Shown: piece after piece, positions 2,922 through 16,634 of the stretch
How positions within the stretch are numbered: the stretch's first letter is position 1
How the letters are laid out: each line of letters opens with the position of its first letter
Assembly: GCF_000237865.1 (NCBI RefSeq)
Contig: NC_017459.1
Span: 570,001-602,000 of the forward strand
Length of the DNA: 32,000 bases
Source of the DNA: Haloquadratum walsbyi C23
GTDB taxonomy: Archaea > Halobacteriota > Halobacteria > Halobacteriales > Haloferacaceae
Reading direction: 5' to 3'
Notes under the pieces: model-generated
What the model was told of the DNA's origin: nothing
The model's database searches: none
Seen by the model: only the letters and a program-made list of their open reading frames with translations
Position numbers and translations under genes: made by a program

Positions 2922-5900
2922 CTAGTATACGGTTCGTTCCATTCGTTCTCGCAGAGGATCGTGTTCAAATAGCTCTTCAACAGCGTTCAGTAATGCTTCT
3001 GCGACAGCAACAAACGCTGCTGATTCTACCTGATCAGTCGTATTTTGATCTCTAACCATTGTTGTTACAGATTCAACCATTTCTCTGGCAGGTGCAACCT
3101 CGGCGACATCACCAACCGCCGATGAAACTGCTTCATCAACCTCTCCAATTTGTTCGTTCACCACACTTCGCTGCTGTCCGATATCCTCGCGAGCGAGCGA
3201 TGTAATTCGACTGATATCAACAGACCCACGCCATGTAACCGATACTTCAGCCATGTTCGAGCATGCTGAAAATAAATCGACGTTTCGCTTTGAGGTCATG
3301 ACTGATTCCACAGTGTCAGCACTCGTTTCGATGGCATCAAGTAACGACTCTGCAACTGCGTCAGGGCGGGCATTACCACCAGCCGTCAAGAGCTCATATC
3401 CACTCGATGGGATACGCTCAACCGAACGAAGTGCTTTTGCGAGAACACTTGCATAATACAGCGGAATTGCACTATCACGGCGCTCAATCGATCCTATTTC
3501 ATCAACACGGCGCTCGAGTTGGCGTCGACGGTTGCTAAGCTCAGATGGAAGTCGATAATCAAATGAAACTGGTAGTTCGATTTGCTCTGTCTCACCATCG
3601 ATAACTCTAATTTCTCGTTTACTCTCGGTAAATGCATTATCGTATTCTGAGAGATCCGGTTTGACAGTATATGACCCGACTGGAGTATTCTTGAATATGA
3701 CCGAGCCATTTGTATCCGGGTCAAGGACTGCTTTATTACCAGTTTCCTCTCGGATAGCGATAATAGGCACAGTCGAGACTGGTTCATCACCAATTGTGAT
3801 GGTTGCGTGAATCTCTCCAATGAGTTGCCGCATTTGGATATCAACCTGTGCTTGACCCTCTCCGACTGCTACTGTTTGGGTCGTTTTCTCATATTGATCA
3901 TGATCAGCAGTTATGTCAACTTCTGATACTGATAATGGCACTTGTTGTCGCCACTGACCGCGCTGATCCGTCTGTCCGCGATAGGATTGTTTTTGAGAGT
4001 TGTCAGTAACTTCAGCTGTTATCTTAGCTCCCGCAATTGGGCTCGGATCCTGAGAACCCGATTGATCAATCGTCTTCACCGCGAGTTGTTGCCCGTCAAA
4101 CCTGAGTGTGATACGACTTTCAGTACCGTCCACAGACGCTTTCGCCTGCTTTTGTTGCCCATTAACCACTGCTGTTGCTTGGACATGTCCCTGCCGCATC
4201 GAGATTGTTTCACTTCCACCAGACACAGAAATTAATTTCGAGTTTGACGCTGAGGACGATTGTGGCTTGATTGTGACATCGACTTCTCGCTCGATTGGAG
4301 TACCCGTCGCATCACGTAACTGAATCCGTAATGTGCCTGTTTTGTAGGAGGAAGTAGTCGTCTGTCCTGCTGGCTCCGCTCCAGTTTCAACTGAAAGATA
4401 CGTGATAATCATACTGGAGGTGATAAGTCCATATACGAGCCCATATAATGAATTTTGAATATTACCCAGGTCAATGACTATCGCTGCGAGCGATATTATC
4501 AGCACTACGAGACAGCCCCCAATGATACTAAGCATTGCAGCACCGATATCATCCTCCGCAAGCGATGTCGTCCTCAGTTCGCCCCATCCAGCAGTAACAG
4601 CGACGCTGACGAGCAACGTCGTCAACACTGTCAGTACTAAAGAATCGTTGCTGTACGCCCACCAGCTGAATAGTAATATAAATACAACTGCGGCAATACC
4701 TACACCAATACTAGTCGCACGTGGGAGTGACTGTGTCCGACGCACCACGCTTGCACCACCGAGCACGACGACCCCAAGGACACCACTCAACACGAGTAAT
4801 ACCGGATTATCACCCCCGAGAATCGTTGCAATTAGCCCTTCTGAACTGTCGTCGGGTGATTGACCACCTGAGATCTGCGATGCGCCTTCGCCACTGGATC
4901 CAGACGCAATGTTGACATTCCAGATTGTCCCATCTTCATCAACAAGTAAGACGGATTCATTCTCCGGAATCGGATACCCACTTGCGTTAATACCCGATGA
5001 CATACTGGTCACGGAATACTGAGTATAGGAATCATTCTGCGCTATCCAAAGTGTTGCCTGCCCAGATACTTCAGATCCGCCATCCACTATAATCTGATCT
5101 GTACTAGTATTCCAGGTTGCCGTCTGTCTTTGTGACTGAATATTAATTACGTCGTTCGGGGATCCTCGTCCGTCATATACGATATTTCTGACTGCTCCAT
5201 TTTTCTGCTCAATTGTAATACTGAGTGTGTTTGCGAATCGAACTTGTCCAGGGACCGTGAGCGATTGAGTATCGGTAACTTCCTGTGTCTGTGTGTATGT
5301 CCCGTCTGGATTCTTTGTTTGGACAGTCAATGTATACTCTTTACCAGGTGTAATAAGTGGATGCGATATGCTCTGCTGTTGAGCGCTCTTACTACCGGTG
5401 ATTTCTGGACGAGGGTTCTGTTCTGTGGTAATCGTGTATTGTTGCGTTGACCCATCCGGCAGAACACGGACATCTATATTACTCGTGAGTGCGACGCCAG
5501 TATCGAGAAACGCTTTCTGTCGGACTACGATTGCACGCTCATCTGAACGATACTCGCCGATAATGGTTTGACTAAGACCGTTTTGAGAAATCTGAATCGG
5601 GACCTCTGCTTCTGGAACTCCAATCACTGTCGATGAGGGAATTTTGATACCATCAGATGTGATCTGTGGGGTACCATCCCCCTTTTTAACATAACGGAGG
5701 TCTGCGTTTGTCGATCCAGTCTTGTTCTGATTTACCACAGTCAATGTAATATTAGCAGATTTGAGATTGAGATTCCGATCATTGCTGATATTCCGTATGT
5801 TGAATGTAATTGATTGACTCTGATTGAACGAAGTCGGCTTGTTATCAATGACAGTCTGCCCAGCGACGGTGACATTAACTGGCTCTGTCCCGTTGATCTC

Positions 5901-6212
5901 AAATCCTGAGGGCGTGACAGTGACCTCTCCGCTGTTATTATTCACACTCACATCAATCGAGGCAGCCGAGGCAGTTCCGACCCAATCAAAAGCAACTCCG
6001 CCAACAGCAAACACACACACAGCAACAATAATTAAAATGCAGACCCGGCGAGCAATCATCCATACTTGAGTATCAGTATCATCCTCACGCTGTCTTGGGG
6101 GACCCGTCTGCATCTGCTGACCTGATTGTGATTGTGACTGTGGGCATGCTTGAGACGTTTCAGACGATTCGATTGATGCGTGTGGTCGTGTGTATGGATG
6201 CGATGTACTCAT
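2922..6212 (-). CDS. Giant polytopic membrane protein (about 1096 aa). It has a short cytoplasmic N-terminus, a TM helix, an extracytoplasmic beta-rich domain of about 480 aa, a bundle of about 5 TM helices, three cytoplasmic CarboxypepD_reg-like beta modules and a helical acidic tail.
   Basis: The ORF track gives 2922..6341, but its first 43 codons (MRRQTAVSQVRSIVLRERHSRRDDFDRSNRILRIIFRIILGEY) overlap the upstream gene by 125 nt and are basic and non-halophilic. ATG 6212 (MSTSHPYTRPH...) lies 4 nt after the upstream stop, with GGGTGA just upstream. TM1 is VCILIIVAVCVFAVGGVAFDWVG. The later TM bundle includes VLLVLSGVLGVVVLGGASVV, IGVGIAAVVFILLFSWWAY, LVLTVLTTLLVSVAVTAGWG, MLSIIGGCLVVLIISLAAIVI and LYGLVYGLITSSMIITYLSV. 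Beta modules are seen at e.g. IAGAKITAEVTDNSQKQSYRGQTDQRGQW and GSVIFKNTPVGSYTVKP. Confidence 0.7.
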   Translation of the reverse strand: MSTSHPYTRPHASIESSETSQACPQSQSQSGQQMQTGPPRQREDDTDTQVWMIARRVCILIIVAVCVFAVGGVAFDWVGTASAASIDVSVNNNSGEVTVTPSGFEINGTEPVNVTVAGQTVIDNKPTSFNQSQSITFNIRNISNDRNLNLKSANITLTVVNQNKTGSTNADLRYVKKGDGTPQITSDGIKIPSSTVIGVPEAEVPIQISQNGLSQTIIGEYRSDERAIVVRQKAFLDTGVALTSNIDVRVLPDGSTQQYTITTEQNPRPEITGSKSAQQQSISHPLITPGKEYTLTVQTKNPDGTYTQTQEVTDTQSLTVPGQVRFANTLSITIEQKNGAVRNIVYDGRGSPNDVINIQSQRQTATWNTSTDQIIVDGGSEVSGQATLWIAQNDSYTQYSVTSMSSGINASGYPIPENESVLLVDEDGTIWNVNIASGSSGEGASQISGGQSPDDSSEGLIATILGGDNPVLLVLSGVLGVVVLGGASVVRRTQSLPRATSIGVGIAAVVFILLFSWWAYSNDSLVLTVLTTLLVSVAVTAGWGELRTTSLAEDDIGAAMLSIIGGCLVVLIISLAAIVIDLGNIQNSLYGLVYGLITSSMIITYLSVETGAEPAGQTTTSSYKTGTLRIQLRDATGTPIEREVDVTIKPQSSSASNSKLISVSGGSETISMRQGHVQATAVVNGQQKQAKASVDGTESRITLRFDGQQLAVKTIDQSGSQDPSPIAGAKITAEVTDNSQKQSYRGQTDQRGQWRQQVPLSVSEVDITADHDQYEKTTQTVAVGEGQAQVDIQMRQLIGEIHATITIGDEPVSTVPIIAIREETGNKAVLDPDTNGSVIFKNTPVGSYTVKPDLSEYDNAFTESKREIRVIDGETEQIELPVSFDYRLPSELSNRRRQLERRVDEIGSIERRDSAIPLYYASVLAKALRSVERIPSSGYELLTAGGNARPDAVAESLLDAIETSADTVESVMTSKRNVDLFSACSNMAEVSVTWRGSVDISRITSLAREDIGQQRSVVNEQIGEVDEAVSSAVGDVAEVAPAREMVESVTTMVRDQNTTDQVESAAFVAVAEALLNAVEELFEHDPLRERMERTVY

Positions 6213-6216
6213 ATAC

Positions 6217-7449
6217 TCACCCAGAATTATCCGAAAGATAATCCTCAAGATTCTGTTTGATCTGTCGAAATCGTCGCGGCGGGAATGTCTCTCCCTCAAG
6301 ACTATCGACCTCACTTGAGAGACCGCTGTCTGTCGCCTCATCCATCATTCGTTCGAATTTTGACCATGAGACATCTAATAGTGGATCAAGATCGAACCCA
6401 CCGAATAATAACAGCACATCGATACTATCTCGACGAGACTGATGTGGTGTGAGCGTCGGCATCTGATGAACAACATTATCCATCCCATTGCTTGCAAGCC
6501 ACCGTTGGAGGCGACGTTCAAGACCAGCCTCTGAGTATTCACCACTATCGATTGCGTGTTGTGGGACCCGAACAATCGCGTACACAACTTTTGCGGTAGC
6601 CGGATCCATTGGTATAAAAAGATTATCTGCGGCTTTATCAAAAAGCAATTCTAACTCAAATATTGATGGCTGCTCCATGGCAGTCCCGGCAGTAAAATGA
6701 TATTCATCAAGCCGCCGTGGCCATGCAATAAGATCTCGAACGTCGACCACACTGTACGTCTCTCGACCAGCGCTAATCATCATATCAACTGCTTCAATCG
6801 CATTTCGATTAACCGTCTCATGACGACTTTCGTCATCCTCTCCAAGTTCTTCATCGTTTGAGACATGTGAGTTTGAGATTAATAATACCATCTCAGCGTT
6901 TTGACTCCCATCATACCATCGAAGTAACCGTGAAAGTCCGGAAACAGCATTAAAATGACGTTGCCCTCCCTCAAAATCATATGGCCATGCCGCGAGAGCA
7001 ACATGCGTGACATCGCGCATCGCATTTGTTGGTGGGTTATTTTTCAAACTATCAATAATATATGGCACTGAGCCATTCCCTGTCCCGCCGCCAAGAGTCG
7101 TCATATAGAGAAATGCATCTGCTTCATCAACCCCACCAGTGGTGATTGCCTCTGTAATTCGTGTTTCATCAACTGCAGCGCATTGCTCACCACCAGGGAA
7201 GTAATTTCCAACACCGTCGAGCGGACCGAACTCAAGCGTGTGATCAGCTCTAATATCCTGAATGTCGATTGTATTCTGTTCAATACGGTCAATTGTGTTT
7301 GCGATGTCTGCGCGATTCGTGTTCATGACTAATACCCGGTCATCGATTCCAGGATTCTCAGTGCGACTGAACAGTGTCGATGCCATCCGGCCACCCCCCT
7401 CACCCGATGCGAGAACGGCCCAGCGCGTGTACGTGTCTGATTGGGACAT
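6217..7449 (-). CDS. Tubulin/FtsZ-superfamily GTPase, divergent paralog (410 aa)
   Basis: The GTP-binding loops can be read directly. T1 is AVLASGEGGGRMAS. T3 is GVGNYFPGGEQ (compare tubulin GAGNNWA). T4 is the tubulin signature TTLGGGTGNGSVPYII. T5/H5 is WPYDFEGGQRHFNAVSGLSRL (compare the FtsZ PFxFEGxxR...A..G pattern). T6 is LLISNSH. A T7-like VVDVRD matches the xxDxxD pattern. The C-terminal region is acidic. Confidence 0.85.
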   Translation of the reverse strand: MSQSDTYTRWAVLASGEGGGRMASTLFSRTENPGIDDRVLVMNTNRADIANTIDRIEQNTIDIQDIRADHTLEFGPLDGVGNYFPGGEQCAAVDETRITEAITTGGVDEADAFLYMTTLGGGTGNGSVPYIIDSLKNNPPTNAMRDVTHVALAAWPYDFEGGQRHFNAVSGLSRLLRWYDGSQNAEMVLLISNSHVSNDEELGEDDESRHETVNRNAIEAVDMMISAGRETYSVVDVRDLIAWPRRLDEYHFTAGTAMEQPSIFELELLFDKAADNLFIPMDPATAKVVYAIVRVPQHAIDSGEYSEAGLERRLQRWLASNGMDNVVHQMPTLTPHQSRRDSIDVLLLFGGFDLDPLLDVSWSKFERMMDEATDSGLSSEVDSLEGETFPPRRFRQIKQNLEDYLSDNSG

Positions 7450-7480
7450 ATATATCGGTATACGTGCAGTGTGTAGTTGT

Positions 7481-7488
7481 ATTTATAT
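7481..7488 (-). promoter_or_regulatory. Candidate TATA box (ATATAAAT on - strand) for the 6217-7449 tubulin-like gene
   Basis: An AT-rich octamer lies 32-39 nt upstream of ATG 7449. This is compatible with a haloarchaeal promoter giving a very short leader. Based on position and sequence only. Confidence 0.25.
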
Positions 7489-7863
7489 GTGTGCTCGATG
7501 TCAACTGCGATTGCGTCTTAGTATCGTTGTTGGTTTGATTGCGTTTTTTATTTTGTCTGTGTTCTTGCTGCAGATGGATATCACAAAGCAAGGTTCAATA
7601 TCTCACATAATAGCCGATCCTGTCGGCATATCGATATCCAGAGTGGCTTCTTGAAGTAACCTACTGATGATACTGCTGTCTGGATTGCTACCGTGTCGGC
7701 TTACTTCCAAATAGTCATTATCCATATACACGATGATGAGTTAATCCGAATGGTATTCGCTGATATATATTTTCGATTCGTATCATCATATATACATTTT
7801 TAATTCAGTGCTAACTCATTGATGCATATAATTACATGCGAACGTGTATATGTAAGTCTAGTT

Positions 7864-8080
7864 GTGATTGACATCCTCCTCCACATAAACGCGGAGGAAT
7901 CCTGAGCGTGAGCATTAGAGATTTCAGGTTTGCAGTTCCACCGAACCCCGCATGGTGAGAATCCGTGTGGGGTTCACAAACTGTGACGGGGCGAGTGGGA
8001 CTGCTGGGAGTGCCACATCTCAGCGTGGCTATTGCAGCGTAGGATTCATCCTGTGGCTGAACCCGTAGGTATTCTCCTTG
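7864..8080 (-). repeat. Copy 1 of a noncoding repeat family (MITE-like or structured-RNA-like), read on the - strand
   Basis: The reverse complement shares ordered blocks with 23243-23420 (+): AAGGAG(A/T)AT, GAT(G/T)TGGCACTCCCA, CTGCA(AA)CCTGAAA(T/C)TC(T/C)C and GGATTCCTCCGCGTT(T/C)(A/G)TGGA(G/A)GAGGAT(G/A)TCAA(T/C). Spacing between the GGCACTCCCA and GGATTCCTCC blocks is similar (113 vs 121 nt). It contains a TCCTCC...GGAGGA hairpin. Boundaries are approximate. Confidence 0.55.
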
Positions 8081-8143
8081 ACCCTGTATAATAGAAATCA
8101 TGTGTGCATTTTTATGTTATTCTCAACGACAGTATGAAGTAGC

Positions 8144-10240
8144 TCATGATTCCTTTTTTTGCAGTTCTCCGTCAACTATCATACCGTCCTCATTATTTGT
8201 ATTGATGAGTGATTTTATTTCACTATCCGGAACTGGAGCTGAAAGGAATCGCTCTCTCAACCCATCAAGTGAAATTGTCTCACCCTTATCAAGATTGTAT
8301 GTGAGTACGTTTGTTAACTCCTGCCGCAGACGGTCACTATCGTACACGATAATCGTTCCATCGGTATTTTCGATTGCGGTGTGGTCAGCACGTTCAGCCC
8401 ATAACACGAGCAAGCATGGAACGTATGATTCATCAATTTGATATGACATTGTTGAACTCAGGTATGTTTTCTCATCAAACTGCGTCGAAAACCGTGATGC
8501 AAGATCATCAAGATACGCTGAGGCTTCCTCAATTATTCCATCACAGACCCGGTCTTGAAGTGTTATTGATGGTACTGATAGCGATATTTCAGTATCATCA
8601 CTCACAGAGATCTCCGTTTCAGCTGACCCGAAGTCATCAACAGCAGCTACTGCTGTAACTGTATATTCGCCGAATGGGACATCACTGAACGTTGCGGTCC
8701 CAACAAGTGGCGTCTCAACGGTCATTTCATCCGTATAGTCCGTACCGTCCAAAACGATTCGAATTTGACGATCAGAACCACCACGTTCGAACTGGACAGT
8801 CACTGTCACGGTGTATGTTTCAGTTCCCCCAACTCGTCTGAGACTTGGAACATCCATGTTGAGTGTCACATGATCGGGGTGTGACCGATAATACAGTCCT
8901 AAGAACTGAGTCTCATGATTTCGGACAGGAAGCTCCTCGCCGGTAATTTGCCCATCGCTCTGAAGCGCAGATTCAATCACCGGTTCAACTTGATTATATC
9001 CGCTGATGACAGCGACTTTTGGCTTGACCTTGTCAATTCCGTTCATCAGTGCATCAACTGCCGTAGCCCATCGCTGTTCAAACGTTTGAAGGGTATCACT
9101 ATCCTGCACTTTTCTGAGATAATCTGTCTCAACCGCTGCAGGTGGTGTATAATATCCATCTGGAATATCCGCATCAGCGAGCTCTGCATCCATTGAATTG
9201 AGCTCTGTGGTCAGCGCGTCAATGATCTCAGTGCACTCTGCTCGCGTTTTCTTTCGATGCATCGCAAGTGTTGAAAGATCGACAGCATCAGTAAGTTCGG
9301 CGACAGATCGCCTTCTCTGAGCGATGTCCGGTGCTGAGTCAGGAAGGTACTGCTCGATATTGTACTCATCAACTGTCTGTAGAAGCGACTGAAGTTGCTC
9401 TCGATTTGTCTTGAATGTGCTTTCACCCTTGGTTTTAATTGCATCGCGTGCACGGAGGAGTGCAGTCACTGCATCAATTATTTGATAACTGCTGGCTGCT
9501 TCCCGTGCCGTCTCAACCTCTGTTTCGATCGCTGTCGTCTCAATATCATCAGCACTCCGTGCAATGGATTGAATTGTCTCTGCGGCCGCATCAACCGTCT
9601 CTACTGCCTGCCCTCGAGCAGCCTCGAGTGACTCACCCGCAGCAGCAACTTCTGCACCTGCGGTTGTCGTTGTGACATCAATCGCACGTACAGCGTCTCC
9701 ACCATCCTCAATGAGTGCATCCAGTCGATCGAGCGACTCAGCGATCGTCTCAATGCGGTCTTCGACAGTCTCAGCGAACGCTGCTGGCAGTTCCTCCTCA
9801 ATATCATCGACCTGTCCTGATAATGAATTAATTGTTTCAAGATCTGAAACATTACCAACTGAAAACGCACCAGTTTCTGTGTCGACATCGATTCCTGCTG
9901 TTTGAAGATCACGCTGCAGTGAATCAATCCCAAGTCCAACTCCAGTATCAATGATAGCCGGATATGTTTGTTTCAATTGTTGGCGTGTCTGCCAGATATC
10001 ACTGAACGTCTCACCAACTTCTCGCGCACGTCGTCGAGTATACTGCGTTTGGTCCGTCCCGCTTGCGTCAACTCGTCGTTGAATCCAGACACCACCGCTG
10101 ATGAGTAACAACGGTACCATCCCAACTGCTGCATATACTGCCCACTGTGACCCAACAGCGACGAAAACACCTGCACTCACCGCTCCAGCAAACACAACGA
10201 GTCCAATAAGACCGGCGGCTGTCCGAGTTGATGATTTCAT
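8144..10240 (-). CDS. Membrane-anchored protein (about 698 aa) with two N-terminal TM helices, a long acidic Ala/Glu/Thr-rich helical (coiled-coil-like) region, a CarboxypepD_reg-like beta module and a C-terminal alpha/beta domain
   Basis: The ORF track gives 8144..10336, but its first 32 codons (MVCNFRSTRWWWRIDSCWDYYRCPQWNNRSNI) overlap the upstream gene and are Trp/Cys/Arg-rich. ATG 10240 (MKSSTRTAAGLIGLVVFAGAVSAGVFVAVGSQWAVYAAVGMVPLLLISGGVWIQRRVD) forms an ATGA overlap with the upstream stop. The helical region includes ETVDAAAETIQSIARSADDIETTAIETEVETAREAAS. The beta module reads TYTVTVTVQFERGG...TATFSDVPFGEYTVTAVAAVDDFG. Confidence 0.7.
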   Translation of the reverse strand: MKSSTRTAAGLIGLVVFAGAVSAGVFVAVGSQWAVYAAVGMVPLLLISGGVWIQRRVDASGTDQTQYTRRRAREVGETFSDIWQTRQQLKQTYPAIIDTGVGLGIDSLQRDLQTAGIDVDTETGAFSVGNVSDLETINSLSGQVDDIEEELPAAFAETVEDRIETIAESLDRLDALIEDGGDAVRAIDVTTTTAGAEVAAAGESLEAARGQAVETVDAAAETIQSIARSADDIETTAIETEVETAREAASSYQIIDAVTALLRARDAIKTKGESTFKTNREQLQSLLQTVDEYNIEQYLPDSAPDIAQRRRSVAELTDAVDLSTLAMHRKKTRAECTEIIDALTTELNSMDAELADADIPDGYYTPPAAVETDYLRKVQDSDTLQTFEQRWATAVDALMNGIDKVKPKVAVISGYNQVEPVIESALQSDGQITGEELPVRNHETQFLGLYYRSHPDHVTLNMDVPSLRRVGGTETYTVTVTVQFERGGSDRQIRIVLDGTDYTDEMTVETPLVGTATFSDVPFGEYTVTAVAAVDDFGSAETEISVSDDTEISLSVPSITLQDRVCDGIIEEASAYLDDLASRFSTQFDEKTYLSSTMSYQIDESYVPCLLVLWAERADHTAIENTDGTIIVYDSDRLRQELTNVLTYNLDKGETISLDGLRERFLSAPVPDSEIKSLINTNNEDGMIVDGELQKKES

Positions 10241-11358
10241 AATATTGCTCCTATTGTTCCACTGAGGACAGCGATAATAATCCCAGCAAGAATCAATGCG
10301 CCACCACCACCGAGTTGAGCGGAAATTGCAGACCACTCCAGTTGCCGACCAAAGTCGGCGAAATCCCTAGTTTTCCGTCCAAGTATGTGTGTCCGATAAC
10401 CAGCAATAACAGCTCCAAGTGCAATTCCTGGGACCGCACCAATCGCGAGATTACTTAACACGCTAATTCGCGCACGCTGCTCAACGGCTGCAAGTTTCGT
10501 TGCATACTGACTCATGGTTGCATTTACCGCCTGCGATTGGTTCTGTTGTTCTGCTGTAATTTCCTCAAATGCATTTAGATGAGGTTCTGAGCCGTCGCGC
10601 GCACGATTGAACAACTGCCTACGGAGTTCTGCTGCATCCGCGCGGGCAGCCGTTCGTGACGCGTTCAGTGTGTTGAGTGTCCGGTTGGCTTCCTGAAGTT
10701 TGCTTACAGTCATATCGACACGTTGTTCATTGGCTGTGAGTTCCTCAGTAGTCGTATTAAGTGAATTAAGTGATTCTGTTATTGATTCCGTGGCATTACG
10801 GTAATCCTGCTCATTGCCTCGGTATGCAGTAGCATTCGAAAATACAAGTGGCTCCTGTGCTAAATCTGATTTGACAGTCCCCTCACGCTGTGTCTGTATT
10901 CGTACTGTATTATCAACAGATGCGCTCAGGGTGGTGTCATCGAGCGTCACGACTGTACTATCGAAGCCGACCGTCGCTCGATATGTTCGCCCATTGGCAC
11001 TCGGTGAAATATCAACCAGATTTTCCGTATCAATATCCCATACTGTTGTCTCTCCTGGCTGAGGTCGCTCCGCACCGTTTGCTGTGCAGTACCCGATGTA
11101 TAATTCAGTTCCTGGATACACTGGTGTGTTAGCATCATATTGCTGATTATTTAGGAAGACAACAACTGTATCAGTCTCTCCCTGACACGCGCTCTCGACG
11201 GTCTCCTCAGCGGGTTGAACAGCAGCAACTCCGCCGGTTGCTACCGTGAGTGTCACACCAACATTAACAATTAATATAATGACAACGACTCCATATCGTA
11301 TCCACTGTCGGCATTGCATCGGCAATTCATGTTCTTGTGGACGGTTTGTATTCGTCAT
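10237..11358 (-). CDS. Membrane protein (373 aa) with N-terminal signal-anchor, extracytoplasmic beta-rich plus coiled-coil domain, and two C-terminal TM helices
   Basis: ATG 11358 overlaps the upstream stop (ATGA). N-terminal TM is VVVIILIVNVGVTLTVATGGVAAV. The beta-rich part includes TVVVFLNNQQYDANTPVYPGTELYIGYCTANG. The helical part includes LNSLNTTTEELTANEQRVDMTVSKLQEANRTLNTLNASRTAARADAAELRRQL. C-terminal TMs are LAIGAVPGIALGAVIAGY and GGGGALILAGIIIAVLSGTIGAIL. Confidence 0.7.
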   Translation of the reverse strand: MTNTNRPQEHELPMQCRQWIRYGVVVIILIVNVGVTLTVATGGVAAVQPAEETVESACQGETDTVVVFLNNQQYDANTPVYPGTELYIGYCTANGAERPQPGETTVWDIDTENLVDISPSANGRTYRATVGFDSTVVTLDDTTLSASVDNTVRIQTQREGTVKSDLAQEPLVFSNATAYRGNEQDYRNATESITESLNSLNTTTEELTANEQRVDMTVSKLQEANRTLNTLNASRTAARADAAELRRQLFNRARDGSEPHLNAFEEITAEQQNQSQAVNATMSQYATKLAAVEQRARISVLSNLAIGAVPGIALGAVIAGYRTHILGRKTRDFADFGRQLEWSAISAQLGGGGALILAGIIIAVLSGTIGAIL

Positions 11359-11627
11359 AGCTGATTATCCCAGTACAGAAACACACCAATACTCCCAAGA
11401 ATGCTCCCGATGCCTGCTCCGAGGAGTACACCAGCCCCAATATGTTGTATTGTTTGTTGGCTTGTCTTCACCGCTGCAAGCACTGATTCTGTCTGCATTT
11501 GCATGGTTGATGCGCTCGGTGGTGCTGCACCAGCAACAGGATCTGGTGTGAGAGCAATTATTACGCCTACACAAACAAATATACCAACAGTGACGACCAT
11601 CCCAATGGTAATCGGTTCACGTCTCAT
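11355..11627 (-). CDS. Small two-TM membrane protein (90 aa)
   Basis: Its ATG shares one nucleotide with the stop of the upstream tubulin-like gene (TGATG), and its own stop overlaps the next start (ATGA). Hydrophobic helices are ITIGMVVTVGIFVCVGVIIAL and GAGVLLGAGIGSILGSIGVFLYW. Coding status rests on the coupling and the TM pattern only. Confidence 0.55.
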   Translation of the reverse strand: MRREPITIGMVVTVGIFVCVGVIIALTPDPVAGAAPPSASTMQMQTESVLAAVKTSQQTIQHIGAGVLLGAGIGSILGSIGVFLYWDNQL

Positions 11628-12916
11628 CAGGCAATCACCGCGTCTGATTCCGTTTCATATTCTTCTGCAAGCGTCTCTAATTCAGTAAGTCGCTCAAGAT
11701 CCTCTCGTCGATATGTAAATAAAGTTGTGAATGAAACCAAACTTCGATTTGTCAATGTTGCACCAAGATTCACCTCATCACATCGGGCATGGAGAAATGA
11801 CCGCAACGTCGATGTCTGAATTTGGTAGTCTGTATCAGCAATATACGTCGAAGGTGCACGCAACAGTCCAATTGCCTTTCGTGCCTCCCGTGTATCGACG
11901 TCTGCAACAGTTTGTTTTAGTTCAGCGACTTGTGAGAGTGCTGTTGCATCAATCTCATTTTGTCCAATAAACGGCAATAGATATCCAGCGAGTGATTTCG
12001 TCATCTCCACCGACCGACCCATCGACGCGTATCCGGTTTCGGTATCCTCCCCCAGACCGAATGAAAGGCTCGTTACGATATCTTGAATATCAATAATTGG
12101 TGGATCAACATCATATTCGCTCCGATCAATCCGCTCAAGAACAGTCCCTGAAATGAGACTCACAATTGCAGAGGCGACGTATTCGTTTAGATCCGTGAAC
12201 TGTCCCTCTGCGGCTTCATGATATGAAAGCCGTTCATTATCAATGAGGATGATGCCATCTGCAACCTGCTCAATCTGATTGAGTCCATAGCGAGCATTCC
12301 AGGCTTGTCGACTCGGTGAAGCGCCCTCATCAGATTCATTATTGACCGTCCCAACCGGACCCTGAGTATTTGGAAGCACACAGACCGCGATTGTTTTGCA
12401 TGTTCCGCCGGTGTACTCATCAATCGCATCGATAATATGTGCAGTGATTCCACACCCTGTTCCGCCACCAAGTCCACAGAACACAAACGCAAACGGTACG
12501 TTCGTTTCCTCAGTTTCGACCACTGGGTCTGTCGCTGTTGTTCCGGTATCATCCTCTGAGCTATCACCAGTATTCACCGTCTCTTCTTCGAATTTAATCT
12601 GCTCTGTCAATTCATCATACAATGTATTATCAAGCGCTGCCCGGTTATTCGTGATTACCTCATCAGCTCGAACCGGATTGCGCCCGAATCCACCTGTCAC
12701 CTGCTCTTCGAATCCATCTGTCGTTCCCGGGACCAGTCCTGCACCTTCAGCAATTCCGTACCAACTATTTCGATCGATATTTGTGAGCTTCCGCAGGTCT
12801 CTGACTGTCGAATTGAAAACAAGATGTGTCGCAATCTCATCCATATTATTATGAGCGAATATCTCGTCCACAATAGAACTGCCAGCCTGTCCTGCACCCA
12901 CAAAAAGGTATGGCAT
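11627..12916 (-). CDS. Tubulin/FtsZ-superfamily GTPase, CetZ/tubulin-like divergent paralog (429 aa)
   Basis: T1 is MPYLFVGAGQAGSSIVDEIF (compare the tubulin/CetZ GQAG pattern). T3 is TGGFGRNPVRADEV. T4 is the tubulin signature FCGLGGGTGCGITAHII. T6 is IILIDNERL (compare tubulin DNEAL). A T7-like IIDIQD is present. An acidic Thr-rich insertion (EEETVNTGDSSEDDTGTTATDPVVETEETN) precedes T4. The C-terminal tail is acidic (LAEEYETESDAVIA). Confidence 0.9.
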   Translation of the reverse strand: MPYLFVGAGQAGSSIVDEIFAHNNMDEIATHLVFNSTVRDLRKLTNIDRNSWYGIAEGAGLVPGTTDGFEEQVTGGFGRNPVRADEVITNNRAALDNTLYDELTEQIKFEEETVNTGDSSEDDTGTTATDPVVETEETNVPFAFVFCGLGGGTGCGITAHIIDAIDEYTGGTCKTIAVCVLPNTQGPVGTVNNESDEGASPSRQAWNARYGLNQIEQVADGIILIDNERLSYHEAAEGQFTDLNEYVASAIVSLISGTVLERIDRSEYDVDPPIIDIQDIVTSLSFGLGEDTETGYASMGRSVEMTKSLAGYLLPFIGQNEIDATALSQVAELKQTVADVDTREARKAIGLLRAPSTYIADTDYQIQTSTLRSFLHARCDEVNLGATLTNRSLVSFTTLFTYRREDLERLTELETLAEEYETESDAVIA

Positions 12917-12942
12917 TATTGTATCTATGTTTAATCCACTCT

Positions 12943-12948
12943 GATAAA
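12943..12948 (-). promoter_or_regulatory. Candidate TATA box (TTTATC on - strand) for the 11627-12916 tubulin-like gene
   Basis: It lies 27-32 nt upstream of ATG 12916, inside the 108-bp gap after the preceding gene. The position fits a leaderless haloarchaeal transcript. Based on sequence and position only. Confidence 0.25.
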
Positions 12949-13024
12949 CATGTCTGCTCGCTCAGGATTATATCTGTTATGCGAGTACGTAACCAACTCT
13001 ACTGCGTTATGATGATCATCACGG

Positions 13025-14740
13025 TCACCCGCGTAACTGCTCGAGTAGCACACTGTATGCTTGACGCTCATATAGCTCCATCACCCAATCAAGTGTCTCA
13101 TCAGCGGCCTGTAAATACCCAATTGCTCGGTCGGTATTCCCTGCTGCTCGTGCATCATCAGCTGCTTCCTGCAGTGAGCTCACGAGTTCAAGAAAGTGAA
13201 TTGGGATGCTATGATCGTGTGTTGGATACTCAGAAGGATACTCTGTACGAAGGGTTGATCGCCGTGATTCAATCTCTTCAGCGAGTGTCTGAACGCTAAG
13301 CCCACTGGATTCTCCGGTCGGCGACTGTAGTTCTGGGCATAATGTTCGATCATAAAATCGTAATTCCTGTCGCGCTGCATATACACTTACACGATCTGCG
13401 GGTCCTGCTTGTGAGACAGTTGATTCAAGCTCAGCAGCGCGATCAGCCAATATTTTCCCAATTGCTGCATCGGTTTTTTGAAACTCAGTCACGAGTGACC
13501 CCGCTAACTCAGCGACAGAATCAGTCTCAACCCCCTCGAGCCGGTCTGCGGTAACAGCGGCTTCATCAATTACTGTCACAGCCGATTGCAGCGTCTCAGC
13601 GTACCTCGAAGCAGCAACATCATCTGCTCGGATCACATCAATCAAACTCTGACTTCGACTACTTTGTGGAGAAATTGCTGCCCGCTCAATGACAGTATTG
13701 ATGTCAGTCAGTGCCGTGGTAAAGGCGACTTCCTCATTCGTTAGCGCCGTGGTGATTTCGTCGAGCGCTAAATCGGGATTGGTGTTTGGATCAGCACTAA
13801 CTGACTCACCAGCCTGCTCACGAACAGCGTTGCATATTTTCTCAATGCTCGTAACCATTGACGCCTGTGTACTATGACACTCATCTCTGTCAGTAACGAC
13901 ATCTGCAAGTCGTTCGCCAATAATTGTGATTGCTGACCCAGCGTCTCCATCGATTTTGACCCCCTTTTGTTGCAGTGTTTGTGCTAATTGCTCTGGTTCA
14001 ACATGCGGTCGTACTGTTGACAGTGCTTGGTGTGTCTCAGCATCGCGCTCAATTCGTTCAACTGCTGTGGTAAGTGTATCGGTTAGTCGTCGTTCAGCAG
14101 TGTTATTTGTCGCTTCAAGATACCGAAGAAGTCGGTTCGCAGTGTCTGTCTGTGGGTCTGTCCGTGCTGACGCTGTTTCAGCTGCATTAGCTAATAACGC
14201 CGAGACTGTCTTGTTAGTTGTTTCTGTTCCTTCAGTCATCTTTGTGTGAGTATTTTCACCACTGGTAGTGTTCGTGTCACTCATCACAACACTCACATCA
14301 TCATGGCTTCCTGTCGTCTCCTGCCCTCCAGGCGACGCGTCGGAACCTGATGCAGTTGGTGGGATCAGCTTATTTTGATCTGCAGCGCGGAGGATTGCAG
14401 TCGCCTGCGTTGATGGATTTGCATTTTGATCAACGATTTCTCGTTCGATCAACCTGGCTTCAGCGACAATCTTATTGATAGCGTCGATGAAGACGGCAGG
14501 ATCGTGATTTATCTTACCTATTGATTCTGTTGCTTCTGTTGGTTCTATTGTTTCTGACCCTGAGTCACCTTGCGTGCGAATCCCGATAATAAATCCTATG
14601 ACTCCACCAAGAAATAAAGAAATCACCGCCGACCCAGCAAATAATGCTATATTCTCGACACCGAAATCATTGAGTATGTTGATAACGACTACCACACCCT
14701 TACCGGAAGCCACTCCTGCATCAACGAGTATATTCATCAT
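13025..14740 (-). CDS. Membrane-anchored long acidic helical protein (about 571 aa), function unknown
   Basis: The ORF track gives 13025..14860, but its first 40 codons (MRESLLSKAKIKKHRSYGKHGKQSSHCLIVLVEKIWGDWT) overlap the upstream gene by 113 nt and are very basic. ATGATG at 14740 lies 7 nt after the upstream stop, with GGGGTGA just upstream. TM is IALFAGSAVISLFLGGVIGFIIGI. The rest is Ala/Thr/Glu/Asp-rich and helical-looking (TVSALLANAAETASARTDPQTDTANRLLRYLEATNNTAERRLTDTLTTAVERIERDAE). Confidence 0.7.
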   Translation of the reverse strand: MMNILVDAGVASGKGVVVVINILNDFGVENIALFAGSAVISLFLGGVIGFIIGIRTQGDSGSETIEPTEATESIGKINHDPAVFIDAINKIVAEARLIEREIVDQNANPSTQATAILRAADQNKLIPPTASGSDASPGGQETTGSHDDVSVVMSDTNTTSGENTHTKMTEGTETTNKTVSALLANAAETASARTDPQTDTANRLLRYLEATNNTAERRLTDTLTTAVERIERDAETHQALSTVRPHVEPEQLAQTLQQKGVKIDGDAGSAITIIGERLADVVTDRDECHSTQASMVTSIEKICNAVREQAGESVSADPNTNPDLALDEITTALTNEEVAFTTALTDINTVIERAAISPQSSRSQSLIDVIRADDVAASRYAETLQSAVTVIDEAAVTADRLEGVETDSVAELAGSLVTEFQKTDAAIGKILADRAAELESTVSQAGPADRVSVYAARQELRFYDRTLCPELQSPTGESSGLSVQTLAEEIESRRSTLRTEYPSEYPTHDHSIPIHFLELVSSLQEAADDARAAGNTDRAIGYLQAADETLDWVMELYERQAYSVLLEQLRG

Positions 14741-14747
14741 TGTCCAA

Positions 14748-16634
14748 TCACCCCATATTTTCTCGACCAAGACAATCAAACAGTGGCTCGATTGTTTCCC
14801 ATGCTTCCCGTAGCTCCTGTGCTTCTTTATTTTCGCTTTGCTCAACAAGCTCTCGCGCATGTTTATACATTCGCTCTAGCGTCGGGAGGTTTGGATTCCA
14901 TATGAGCCCCCACAAATAGACATTGTCTACGTGTGGCACAACGAGCTGATTAACATAGATATCAACCGAACTAGGTCCATCATATTGCTCGCGTGCGAGA
15001 AAGTCTTGACCGCTTAGGATTGATGTCAATTCACCATCTTGCAGTAGTGGCTCAAGTTCCTCCATCTTCTCTGCTGGACCATACGCCATGAACGTGCCAC
15101 CCCATGCACTCTTTGGATCAAAATCAACGAGTTGCCCTTGCAGAAGCGTCGATCGTGCAAGTGTATCTAATCGCGCTCTATCGAATCGACTGGCACTTGT
15201 CGTTCCAATCACTGGCGCCATTACCACAGCGGGAGTGTATGCTCGCTCACTAGCGACGCTATATTTTCGTTGGACTGGGCGAAAACTGTCTGGAACATCA
15301 AACACCTCACCACTAATTCGTTCAGTCCCCGTAGTATCTGCTGACTGTGGTGTTGACGACATCGTAAACGCCTCAAGGAACGTCACCAATAGGCGATTTA
15401 CATCAGTGTACATTGGTGGATTATAATGCTCAAGTGCCGCCTGATCAATATCGACAGCAAAATCGGTTCGCTGTGCATCAAGTTTGCTATTATCGAATGG
15501 GATGATACCATCAACGTGTTTTGAGAGATATGCCATTCCAACTACCCCACGAACCATCTCTGATGCGCCAAATTCAGTCTCCGACGGAAGGACCACAGAA
15601 CTCAAAATTGGCTTCGAAAGTGTCGTTGCGTCTGCAACACCTGTTCCCTCACTCACGAGATTTCGAATATTCTTCGCTAAAACTGGAGTAGATCCACATC
15701 CAGTGCCCTTTGTAACGCTGTGGATCAACATCACAGCCTGTGATGCCTCTAAATCACGCTGGTCAACATCAAGCCGGTCCTTGATTGCATTTTTTTCATC
15801 CTCAAAATCTTTCTGCATGAGTGTTCGACCAACCTTCCAATTACGCCCTGCACCGCTGTAATTATGATGTCGGTAGCCAATCATCCCATTTGTAATGAGT
15901 TTTTCTCTTGAAAACGCTCGATCCTGCTGTGCATAAAATGTATTTCCTAACTCCGCAATATTGGTATTCAATCCTGCATAGTCTGCTAGCCCACCATCCC
16001 ATACTTGTGCAAGCGGACTATTTTGCTCACGCAGCGTCTCTCGACGGAGTAAAATAGCGTCAAGAATATGATTACCAGCCCCACCGACACCAATCATCTG
16101 CCATTTATTCCCTGTTGCGCCAACCAGCGGCGTTGACCCAGGGACACTCACACTGTTGTCGACACCCTCGTCACTGATTGCATTCACACTCTCACTCTCC
16201 AAGCGATTTTGTCCGGCGTCATCACGTATCTCGATAGTGTCGGTCGAATTCGACCCGTTCCCTCTATTTACACTTCGTGTCGACCCCGATGATCCTTGAT
16301 TAGTTGAATTCGATGTTGATTGTGTTAAATTATGTGCTCCTTCCGTATTTGAATTGGTATCACTACTTGCGCTGTCGTTATGATGTGATTCACTCTCATT
16401 TTGACTTCCAGTGCCTGACGTCGTAATATGTAGTGATGAGTCCTCATCATCGCTATCCGAGCTATCATCGCGATACTGCGGTCGCAACTCGCCATTGCTA
16501 TCAAAGATTGTATTATATCGGTCTGCGTATACCTCTTGAACGGATGCTGGTGTTCCTGCATGGTCAGCAGCGATGTGTTCTTCAATACTTTGCTCATCAA
16601 TTTCGCGCAGGCAGATTTTGCAATTGTCTGTCAT
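14748..16634 (-). CDS. Tubulin/FtsZ-superfamily GTPase paralog fused to an N-terminal C2H2-like zinc knuckle and a low-complexity linker of about 150 aa (628 aa)
   Basis: The N-terminus is MTDNCKICLREIDEQSIEEHIAADH (CxxC...HxxxxH). A S/D/N/T-rich linker follows (DDSSDSDDEDSS...NSTNQGSSGSTRSVNRGNGSNST). Tubulin-like loops are then visible. T1 is WQMIGVGGAGNHILDAI. T3 is YSGAGRNWKVG (compare tubulin GAGNNWAKG). T4 is degenerate, SVTKGTGCGSTPVLA. T6 is IIPFDNSKL. A T7-like VFDVPD is present. Confidence 0.85.
   Translation of the reverse strand: MTDNCKICLREIDEQSIEEHIAADHAGTPASVQEVYADRYNTIFDSNGELRPQYRDDSSDSDDEDSSLHITTSGTGSQNESESHHNDSASSDTNSNTEGAHNLTQSTSNSTNQGSSGSTRSVNRGNGSNSTDTIEIRDDAGQNRLESESVNAISDEGVDNSVSVPGSTPLVGATGNKWQMIGVGGAGNHILDAILLRRETLREQNSPLAQVWDGGLADYAGLNTNIAELGNTFYAQQDRAFSREKLITNGMIGYRHHNYSGAGRNWKVGRTLMQKDFEDEKNAIKDRLDVDQRDLEASQAVMLIHSVTKGTGCGSTPVLAKNIRNLVSEGTGVADATTLSKPILSSVVLPSETEFGASEMVRGVVGMAYLSKHVDGIIPFDNSKLDAQRTDFAVDIDQAALEHYNPPMYTDVNRLLVTFLEAFTMSSTPQSADTTGTERISGEVFDVPDSFRPVQRKYSVASERAYTPAVVMAPVIGTTSASRFDRARLDTLARSTLLQGQLVDFDPKSAWGGTFMAYGPAEKMEELEPLLQDGELTSILSGQDFLAREQYDGPSSVDIYVNQLVVPHVDNVYLWGLIWNPNLPTLERMYKHARELVEQSENKEAQELREAWETIEPLFDCLGRENMG

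Follow-up and report, generated by a model that had tools for sequence, protein, structure and literature searches.

Transthyretin-like modules, predicted to be cytoplasmic, in two membrane proteins whose genes flank that of a divergent tubulin-like GTPase in Haloquadratum walsbyi

The 32,000-nucleotide stretch of the Haloquadratum walsbyi C23 chromosome analysed here (NC_017459.1, positions 570,001 to 602,000; hereafter the window) carries on its minus strand genes for three divergent tubulin/FtsZ-family GTPases, Tub1, Tub2 and Tub3, interleaved with genes for membrane proteins. Two of the latter, P0006 and P0007, whose genes have the Tub3 gene placed between them, contain homologous modules of 85-90 residues. 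We show that these modules are transthyretin-like beta sandwiches (CarboxypepD_reg, PF13620; clan Transthyretin in the Pfam database), three in tandem in P0006 and one in P0007, and that a short motif common to the two proteins is the central hairpin of this fold. Judging from several features of the two families, all four modules very likely face the cytoplasm. We propose, with a probability of roughly 0.6, that they act as cytoplasmic stalk or scaffold modules and that the domains following them most probably contact Tub3.

The limits of both genes are sensible (the P0007 start is the ATG at 10240, overlapping the upstream stop), and the two peptides that the original prediction had quoted as shared, FKNTPVGSYTV in P0006 and FSDVPFGEYTV in P0007, are present as quoted in the predicted proteins, with their coordinates verified (Table 1). 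Their common pattern, F-[SK]-[DN]-[VT]-P-[FV]-G-[ES]-Y-T-V, sits in the same beta-hairpin of the homologous modules, a strand-Gly-strand hairpin in the AlphaFold2 (AF2) models of both proteins. The parts of P0006 follow one another as an N-terminal anchor, a glycosylated ectodomain, five transmembrane (TM) helices, the three beta modules and a helical C-terminal domain. The earlier TM counts, two in P0007 and one plus five in P0006, agree with the helices of the AF2 models.

A pairwise BLASTP comparison of the two H. walsbyi proteins yields an alignment that covers exactly the motif regions, at a non-significant E-value of 0.16; the pair alone is therefore no proof of homology, and this result would fit two short peptides that resemble each other by chance within beta-rich regions of unrelated origin. 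We accordingly gathered 13 orthologues of P0007 and 21 of P0006, along with more from 11 genome loci, built profiles from them and compared these with hhalign. The P0007 module matched P0006 module 3 with a probability of 96.3 % (P 1.6e-9) and module 2 at 90.9 %, while within P0006 module 3 matched module 2 at 90.9 % and module 2 matched module 1 at 83 %. As a control, the P0006 ectodomain, which is also beta-rich, was compared in seven slices with the same profiles and gave 0.1-7.4 %. Both families furthermore match the same Pfam clan, and in the predicted structures the two regions share one fold, in which the motif occupies an equivalent hairpin. The profile comparison, its clean negative controls and the structural matches together refute the chance-match explanation, which we regard as having practically no chance of being correct, and the common domain proposed for the two proteins is supported. 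Outside the modules, comparisons of the C-terminal domains, and of the P0007 helical region with the P0006 C-terminal domain, reached only 1-3 %; on these profiles, the beta modules are the sole region common to P0006 and P0007.

The identity of the fold emerged from both sequence and structure. PF13620 was matched in 19 of the 21 P0006 homologues (best E-value 4.9e-15), several of which carry the NCBI name "carboxypeptidase regulatory-like domain-containing protein". The H. walsbyi P0006 scores 27.6 bits against it (E-value 3.8e-6, the matching stretch being module 2), which lies below the curated gathering score of 32.3 bits that served as the membership threshold; distant orthologues of P0007 (from contig L015) and of P0006 exceed it, with 38.9 and 39.3 bits respectively. 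The P0007 family gives weak Pfam matches to SpaA (9/13), SdrD_B (6/13) and PF13620 (5/13), and the H. walsbyi member itself matches only SpaA, at an E-value of 8e-4. The structural comparisons rest on the AF2 models, whose predicted local distance difference test (pLDDT) scores are 80-95 in the module regions (P0006: mean 71, with 80-95 over residues 623-1096; P0007: mean 83). Superposition with VIA-align matched P0006 to the transthyretin-like domains of carboxypeptidases D and N with Z-scores of 12.0 (5aq0_B, human carboxypeptidase D), 11.9 (1qmu_A) and 11.5, and the three modules taken together aligned over 247 residues with the Bacillus anthracis TIE protein (6fwv_A, Z 11.4). Residues 473-560 of P0007 likewise align to 6hif_Y, 1qmu_A and 5aq0_B. 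The Pfam matches in the homologues and these superpositions thus bear out the CarboxypepD_reg-like fold that had been suggested, and the "about three" copies expected in the giant protein resolve into residues 623-707, 708-796 and 797-886.

What, then, is the motif? An alignment of all four module types across genera shows that they have in common [VL]-P-x-G-x-[YHW] and a preceding T-D-x-x-G. The 11-residue identity pattern is confined to Haloquadratum and its close kin, and across genera only the [VL]-P-x-G-x-[YHW] core remains; for example, module 3 in Halorubrum and Natrinema reads E-V-P-I-G-Q-Y-R-I-E. Within the P0007 motif, at least 80 % of 15 orthologues keep F518, P522 and G524. The P0007 module and P0006 module 3 thus both display, conserved across genera, the hydrophobic-P-x-G-x-aromatic hairpin signature, which, in view of the Pfam logo, we take to be a hallmark of PF13620. 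Because cross-genus conservation shrinks to this core, the resemblance of the two H. walsbyi peptides is, as far as the alignment goes, the hallmark hairpin of the fold combined with coincidental identities, and not a dedicated site. The suggestion that the motif is a special shared site is hence not supported.

We then asked on which side of the membrane the modules lie, for which five independent arguments are available: the TM hairpin of P0007, the parity of TM helices in P0006, the distribution of N-glycosylation sequons, and the layouts of single-TM and of soluble relatives. In P0007 the two helices of the N-terminal hairpin (residues 4-28 and 32-59 in the AF2 model) are connected by a neutral outer loop of 3-9 residues and flanked by K/R-rich segments, M-K-S-S-T-R-T at the N-terminus and R-R-V..Y-T-R-R-R-A-R after the second helix; the hairpin and its basic flanks are kept in 15 orthologues, including those from non-halophiles. 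As a two-TM hairpin places both ends on one side, the positive-inside rule assigns both ends of P0007 to the cytoplasm. In P0006 the helices of the cluster between ectodomain and modules span residues 470-493, 496-521, 525-549, 556-581 and 588-609 in the AF2 model. Kyte-Doolittle counting is unstable for the weak last of these helices, and we relied instead on inspection of alignments, parity and independent markers. Throughout the family an odd number of TM helices separates the ectodomain from the modules: five in Haloquadratum, Haloarcula and Halosimplex, three in Halorubrum, Natrinema, Halobiforma, Natronomonas and Halanaeroarchaeum, and one in a Halobaculum homologue. The loop past the first cluster helix is K/R-rich (e.g. 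R-F-R-D-E-W-S-R-E-R-L-K).

Among 17 P0006 homologues, the N-terminal domain contains 183 sequons against 55 expected from composition-matched shuffles, a 3.3-fold enrichment, while the C-terminal part, with 31 observed and 25 expected, is not enriched; cysteines are conserved in the C-terminal part and absent from the N-terminal domain. Distant P0006 relatives from non-halophiles display an unambiguous type-I layout, in which a signal peptide, a short ectodomain that is sequon-rich, Thr-rich or built of (A-N-V-S-P)n, a single TM helix and a basic flank (R-L-K-K-D-K-E-P-R-R or K-G-K-R-K-K) precede the PF13620 modules and the helical domain. Two independent soluble relatives, P0183 and P0186, begin with a PF13620 module and have neither signal peptide nor TM helix. 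These two are metagenome proteins from Logan assemblies, in which the PF13620 module is followed by the helical domain and an extra C-terminal part. A short P0006 relative (L018:3309-4991) has an ectodomain made up entirely of about 17 A-N-V-S-P sequon repeats, behind which come one TM helix and the basic stretch K-G-K-R-K-K.

Most domains of the PF13620 type lie outside the cytoplasm, and a cytoplasmic placement is unusual for this fold. This general background would favour the reversed topology, with the modules extracellular and the N-terminal domain of P0006 inside, as would the weak hydrophobicity of the last cluster helix (Kyte-Doolittle value about 1.5) and the low confidence of the TM helices in the AF2 model. 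Such an arrangement would have to contend with the signal-peptide-like N-termini of P0006 homologues, sequon enrichment restricted to the N-terminal domain, the consistently odd TM parity with a K/R-rich first inner loop, the KKDK-type C-flanks of single-TM relatives, soluble relatives devoid of signal peptides, and the P0007 hairpin with its neutral loop and two basic flanks. We consider the reversed topology very improbable; the cytoplasmic location first proposed for the modules is supported by the hairpin flanks, the odd TM counts, the sequons and both the single-TM and the soluble relatives.

This placement sets the modules apart from their best-known structural relatives. The C-terminal domains of carboxypeptidases D, N and M (5aq0, 1qmu, 2nsm) resemble them in being beta sandwiches of about 80-90 residues with a P-x-G-x-Y hairpin (Z 8-12). 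Unlike these, the modules of P0006 and P0007 would be cytoplasmic and membrane-adjoining, those of P0006 coming directly after the TM helices, and what comes after them is an uncharacterised helical domain in P0006 and an alpha/beta domain in P0007, with no catalytic partner domain. The CnaB/SpaA pilin modules and the B. anthracis TIE protein (6fwv, 8bdw, 3phs) likewise form rods of tandem modules of the same fold, but the likeness is one of fold only: the modules of Gram-positive pilins and TIE lie outside the cell, are linked by sortase and gain stability from intramolecular isopeptide or ester bonds, for which the defining residues are Lys-Asn/Asp and a catalytic Glu/Asp, whereas those of P0006 and P0007 are predicted to be intracellular. 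An LPXTG-type signal is not expected in a cytoplasmic archaeal segment.

Part of this locus has been published as a computationally predicted ESCRT-like (endosomal sorting complex required for transport) system termed "Halo_adaptin" (Makarova et al. 2024, mBio 15:e00335-24, PMC10936438). Table S2 of that study lists for H. walsbyi C23 P0006 (HQRW_RS02570, WP_014555339) as arCOG04500 "protein with Ig-like domain", Tub3 (HQRW_RS02575) as arCOG02202 "related to CetZ", and a neighbouring membrane protein; its RefSeq coordinates equal the window coordinates plus 570000. P0006 and Tub3 lie inside the conserved neighbourhood of a Vps4-like ATPase (WP_014555335) and adaptin-like proteins. The published neighbourhood ends at Tub3 and does not cover P0007 or the other two tubulin-like genes, and that study describes no membrane topology ("signal peptide" occurs 0 times in its main text), no shared module and no helical C-terminal domain (PMC10936438). 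Searching of the literature for a description of the three-tubulin cluster turned up only this paper. Thus the "Ig-like" domains of P0006 and its CetZ-like neighbour are already public (Makarova et al. 2024), and what is new here relative to that study is P0007, the homology of the modules, their cytoplasmic placement, the helical C-terminal domain and the trio of P0007, Tub3 and P0006.

To place this trio in a wider context, we scanned other genomes with phmmer. The order P0007, Tub3, P0006 is kept in every locus with all three genes. In all 10 haloarchaeal loci spanning these genes, from 7 genera (Haloquadratum, Haloarcula, Halorubrum x3, Halobiforma, Halanaeroarchaeum, Natrinema x2 and Natronomonas), the wider cluster also has one order, namely M16641, Tub1, M13025, Tub2, a small protein, P0004, P0007, Tub3, P0006, P0005 and the "adaptin appendage-like" protein 2 (adaptin-2), with the qualification that some loci gave no match to the small protein or to P0004 and that the Tub1 end is cut off by the flanks in most. 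The genes of the trio overlap or are separated by 0-10 nucleotides in haloarchaeal loci and in three contigs from non-halophiles. From the P0007 stop to the Tub3 start there are 1-7 nucleotides in other genera and 694 in H. walsbyi (7450-8143), an interval of this size being seen only in Haloquadratum. This gap holds a repeat resembling a miniature inverted-repeat transposable element (MITE), with at least 40 other matches on the H. walsbyi chromosome at 70-89 % identity. The genes therefore form one continuous string in which the two module-bearing genes flank Tub3, and their assignment to a "second" and a "third" tubulin-led unit was an artefact of the MITE-like insertion.

Among 401 sampled Halobacteria genomes, the P0007 family occurs in 40 (one by a weak partial hit), the P0006 C-terminal domain in 41 and both in 39; in those genomes with both that were compared, the two are on the same contig and a few kb apart. 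The cluster is hence carried by about 10 % of the sampled genomes, in 20 of 91 genera. One of the 10 haloarchaeal loci lies on a Natrinema plasmid; within the fetched stretch of the 742-kb plasmid p1 of Natrinema sp. 74 (L010) the cluster is syntenic from M13025 to adaptin-2. The plasmid location and the patchy distribution suggest horizontal spread. The full trio is also found in the non-halophile metagenome contigs L012, L015 and L016 (Tub3 E-values of about 1e-116 to 1e-119), that of L015 adjoining a Methanosarcinales-type S-layer gene. Contig L018 has the trio with a split P0007-like gene (Tub3 E-value 5e-94), and in L014, which ends inside Tub3, only Tub3 followed by a P0006-like gene is visible. 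The trio thus reaches beyond the haloarchaea.

To identify the parts most likely to make specific contacts, we examined conservation across the P0006 family. Columns with at least 80 % identity make up 3 % of the ectodomain, 1 % of the TM cluster and 8-9 % of the three modules, where they are Gly, Pro, Asp, Trp, Tyr and His, against 25 % of the C-terminal helical domain (residues 887-1096), the best-conserved part of the protein. Conserved stretches of this domain include K-R-N-V-D-L-F-x-A-C, A-P-A-R-E-M and L-R-E-R-x-x-R-T-V. Searches with it returned no usable match in the PDB sequence profiles (best E-value 3.4), Pfam (best E-value 0.023) or the ESM Atlas. Foldseek and VIA searches with whole models are dominated by the beta modules; the helical parts and the P0007 C-terminus gave generic or weak structural matches, helical bundles reaching Z-scores of at most 10, and such matches are no evidence of a new fold in either. 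The helical domain is represented by 168 clusters among 1.84 billion representatives and, with few exceptions, forms the very end of the protein, being internal in the soluble proteins P0183, P0186 and P0187. Together with the PF13620 modules it constitutes a stable cassette, in which the number of modules varies from 1 to 3 among relatives, while the ectodomain is swapped among Ig-like, Big_2, PKD and repeat versions or is missing altogether. The last ~65 residues of P0007 (approximately 634-698; 8147-8340, minus strand) are weakly winged-helix-like (VIA Z 7.5-7.7 to 7cv2_A and 1t6s_B). Tub3 in turn ends (6217-6330, minus strand) in a Gly/Ser-rich linker followed by a helix of the form ..L-x-R-I-x-x-N-L-E-x-Y.., conserved in halophiles and non-halophiles alike, which, by analogy with the usual layout of the FtsZ family, we infer to be a candidate partner-binding tail.

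The low conservation of the P0006 modules compared with the 25 % of the helical domain points to the modules as a stalk and to the helical domain as the specific interface. The rigid shafts of Gram-positive pilins, which lie outside the cell, are built of beta-sandwich modules of this fold in tandem. By our reading, the modules would be a rigid stalk inside it, holding a conserved terminal domain, i.e. the 210-residue helical domain of P0006 or the alpha/beta, winged-helix-like end of P0007, at a fixed distance under the membrane. A conserved cytoplasmic partner, most probably Tub3 with its flexible Gly/Ser linker and conserved C-terminal helix, would then be likely to contact these terminal domains and not the hairpin motif. 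P0006 would thereby couple a variable glycosylated surface domain to a cytoplasmic assembly, with P0007 as a purely cytoplasmic, hairpin-anchored partner.

The original prediction had instead seen in the modules themselves candidate docking sites for the tubulin-like filaments; they would act through the surface bearing the shared F-x-[DN]-x-P-x-G-x-Y-T-V. The modules are indeed cytoplasmic and membrane-proximal by our topology, their genes flank Tub3 in every locus with all three, and the P0007 module retains some conserved polar residues. We nevertheless think direct docking to the modules unlikely: the motif is the hallmark hairpin of the fold and is reduced to P-x-G-x-Y when genera are compared, the P0006 modules are the least conserved of its cytoplasmic parts, and their number differs among relatives.

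Some observations weigh against the stalk reading itself. The P0007 module is as conserved as the remainder of the protein (24 % of columns, including the polar E474, R491, T507 and T510) and may thus have a specific binding role. The AF2 model of the P0006 TM region has a pLDDT below 50, and a distant metagenome protein, P0162, has three TM helices after an N-terminus without a signal peptide, a misfit that may reflect a truncated gene call. Finally, the gene for a P0006 relative in contig L017 has one for a Vps4-like AAA ATPase in its neighbourhood and lacks a tubulin-like gene over about 7 kb, and the cassette may accordingly have a partner other than Tub3.

This last case leads to another possibility, that the cassette of modules and helical domain docks to the ESCRT-like "Halo_adaptin" machinery (the Vps4-like ATPase, a PspA/ESCRT-III-like protein and the cytoplasmic propeller/Ig protein "adaptin-1"), with Tub3 acting in parallel. 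P0006 is listed in the published Halo_adaptin neighbourhood, in L017 the Vps4-like AAA ATPase is encoded two genes away from the relative and tubulin-like genes are missing from the vicinity, and adaptin-1, having no signal peptide, would share a compartment with the cassette. Yet Tub3 separates P0007 from P0006 in each of the 10 haloarchaeal loci that span them, as it does in three contigs from non-halophiles, a linkage tighter than that to the ESCRT-like genes, which are placed divergently or convergently. From this tighter, invariant adjacency Tub3 appears to be the likelier partner of the cassette, and we hold docking to the ESCRT-like machinery to be a possible but rather doubtful alternative. 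In L017 itself (7284-14889) the P0006-like protein combines Ig-like, Big_1 and PF13620 domains with the helical domain; next come an ARM/SWIM protein gene and then an AAA ATPase in which Vps4_C is fused to a DisA-type diadenylate cyclase (DAC) domain.

The adaptin-like proteins of the locus merit separate mention. Adaptin-2 (HQRW_RS02560) has a probable GTG start at 1609, overlapping the stop of P0005 (1541-1609, minus strand). The longer N-terminus so obtained is hydrophobic, and 11 of 11 orthologues start with a Sec-type signal peptide followed by sequons; for this reason adaptin-2 is probably extracellular, which is awkward for its reading as a cytoplasmic coat adaptor. HQRW_RS02555, the other adaptin-like protein, is encoded beyond the window (L028, G000:C1:564970 onward) and has an N-terminus without signal peptide or TM helix. 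Given adaptin-like proteins both with and without signal peptides, the propeller/Ig proteins of the locus seem to be placed inside as well as outside the cell.

Returning to the stalk reading, P0007 is reminiscent of the membrane tethers of FtsZ-family filaments, namely EzrA, ZipA, FtsA and SepF in bacteria and SepF and CdpA in haloarchaea, in its N-terminal membrane anchor, its long cytoplasmic helical region and a gene adjoining that of a tubulin-superfamily GTPase. The analogy is functional only: neither P0006 nor P0007 gave a sequence or fold match to EzrA, ZipA, FtsA, SepF or CdpA in Pfam or the PDB, and none of these tethers has a transthyretin-like module. A tether of this kind binds its GTPase directly, in most cases at the C-terminal peptide. 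As a more tentative extension, P0006 and P0007 might constitute a two-part transmembrane receptor for Tub3 filaments, whose stalks and terminal domains would capture the Tub3 C-terminal helix while the glycosylated ectodomain of P0006 would link the filament mechanically to the secreted propeller/Ig proteins.

Table 1. Positions of the genes, domains and other features discussed, in window coordinates
Feature	Position	Strand	Remarks
P0006	2922..6212	minus	1096 residues; HQRW_RS02570; arCOG04500; equals RefSeq 572922..576212
P0006 N-terminal signal-anchor helix, residues 47-69	6006..6074	minus	preceded by ARR
P0006 ectodomain, residues 85-465	4818..5960	minus	beta-rich; 11 N-x-S/T sequons; no Cys
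P0006 five-TM cluster, residues 470-609	4386..4805	minus	3 or 1 helices here in homologues
P0006 module 1, residues 623-707	4092..4346	minus	4yok: Z 11.2, root-mean-square deviation 1.8, 84 aligned
P0006 module 2, residues 708-796	3825..4091	minus	5aq0_B: Z 12.0, root-mean-square deviation 1.7, 80 aligned
P0006 module 3, residues 797-886	3555..3824	minus	holds motif; 8bdw_A: Z 10.5; 4v4c_B: Z 9.8
Motif FKNTPVGSYTV (P0006)	3663-3695	minus	beta-hairpin, strands 837-844 and 846-852 (AF2)
P0006 C-terminal helical domain, residues 887-1096	2925..3554	minus	210 residues; best-conserved part
Tub3 (P0003)	6217..7449	minus	410 residues; divergent tubulin/FtsZ-family GTPase; HQRW_RS02575 (576217..577449); arCOG02202
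MITE-like repeat, ~160 nucleotides	7867..8024		in the P0007-Tub3 gap
P0007	8144..10240	minus	698 residues; TM hairpin, cytoplasmic helical region, one beta module, alpha/beta C-terminus
P0007 TM hairpin, residues 4-59	10064..10231	minus	AF2 helices 4-28, 32-59
P0007 beta module, residues 471-558	8567..8830	minus	6hif_Y: Z 10.6; 1qmu_A: Z 8.9; 5aq0_B: Z 8.1
Motif FSDVPFGEYTV (P0007)	8657-8689	minus	beta-hairpin, strands 513-522 and 524-532 (AF2)
P0007 C-terminal alpha/beta region, residues 559-698	8147..8566	minus	
Tub2	11627-12916	minus	tubulin/FtsZ-family GTPase gene
Tub1	14748-16634	minus	tubulin/FtsZ-family GTPase gene

Taken as a whole, the analysis adds a structural annotation, modest but useful, to a system known until now from computational prediction only. 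The fold is an ordinary one, and the value of the analysis lies in a firm topological map of the parts of two conserved membrane proteins that face the cytoplasm, which is the site of the three tubulin-like GTPases and of the ESCRT-like proteins. It moves the focus from the motif to the uncharacterised, strongly conserved helical domain at the C-terminus of P0006 as the likelier contact, and it defines constructs for a first round of biochemistry, namely residues 620-1096 and 887-1096 of P0006, residues 60-698 of P0007 and the Tub3 tail. Were P0006 and P0007 to prove a two-part receptor for Tub3, the locus would encode a trans-envelope, tubulin-based machine working with an ESCRT-like system in lineages from haloarchaea to methanogen-like archaea.

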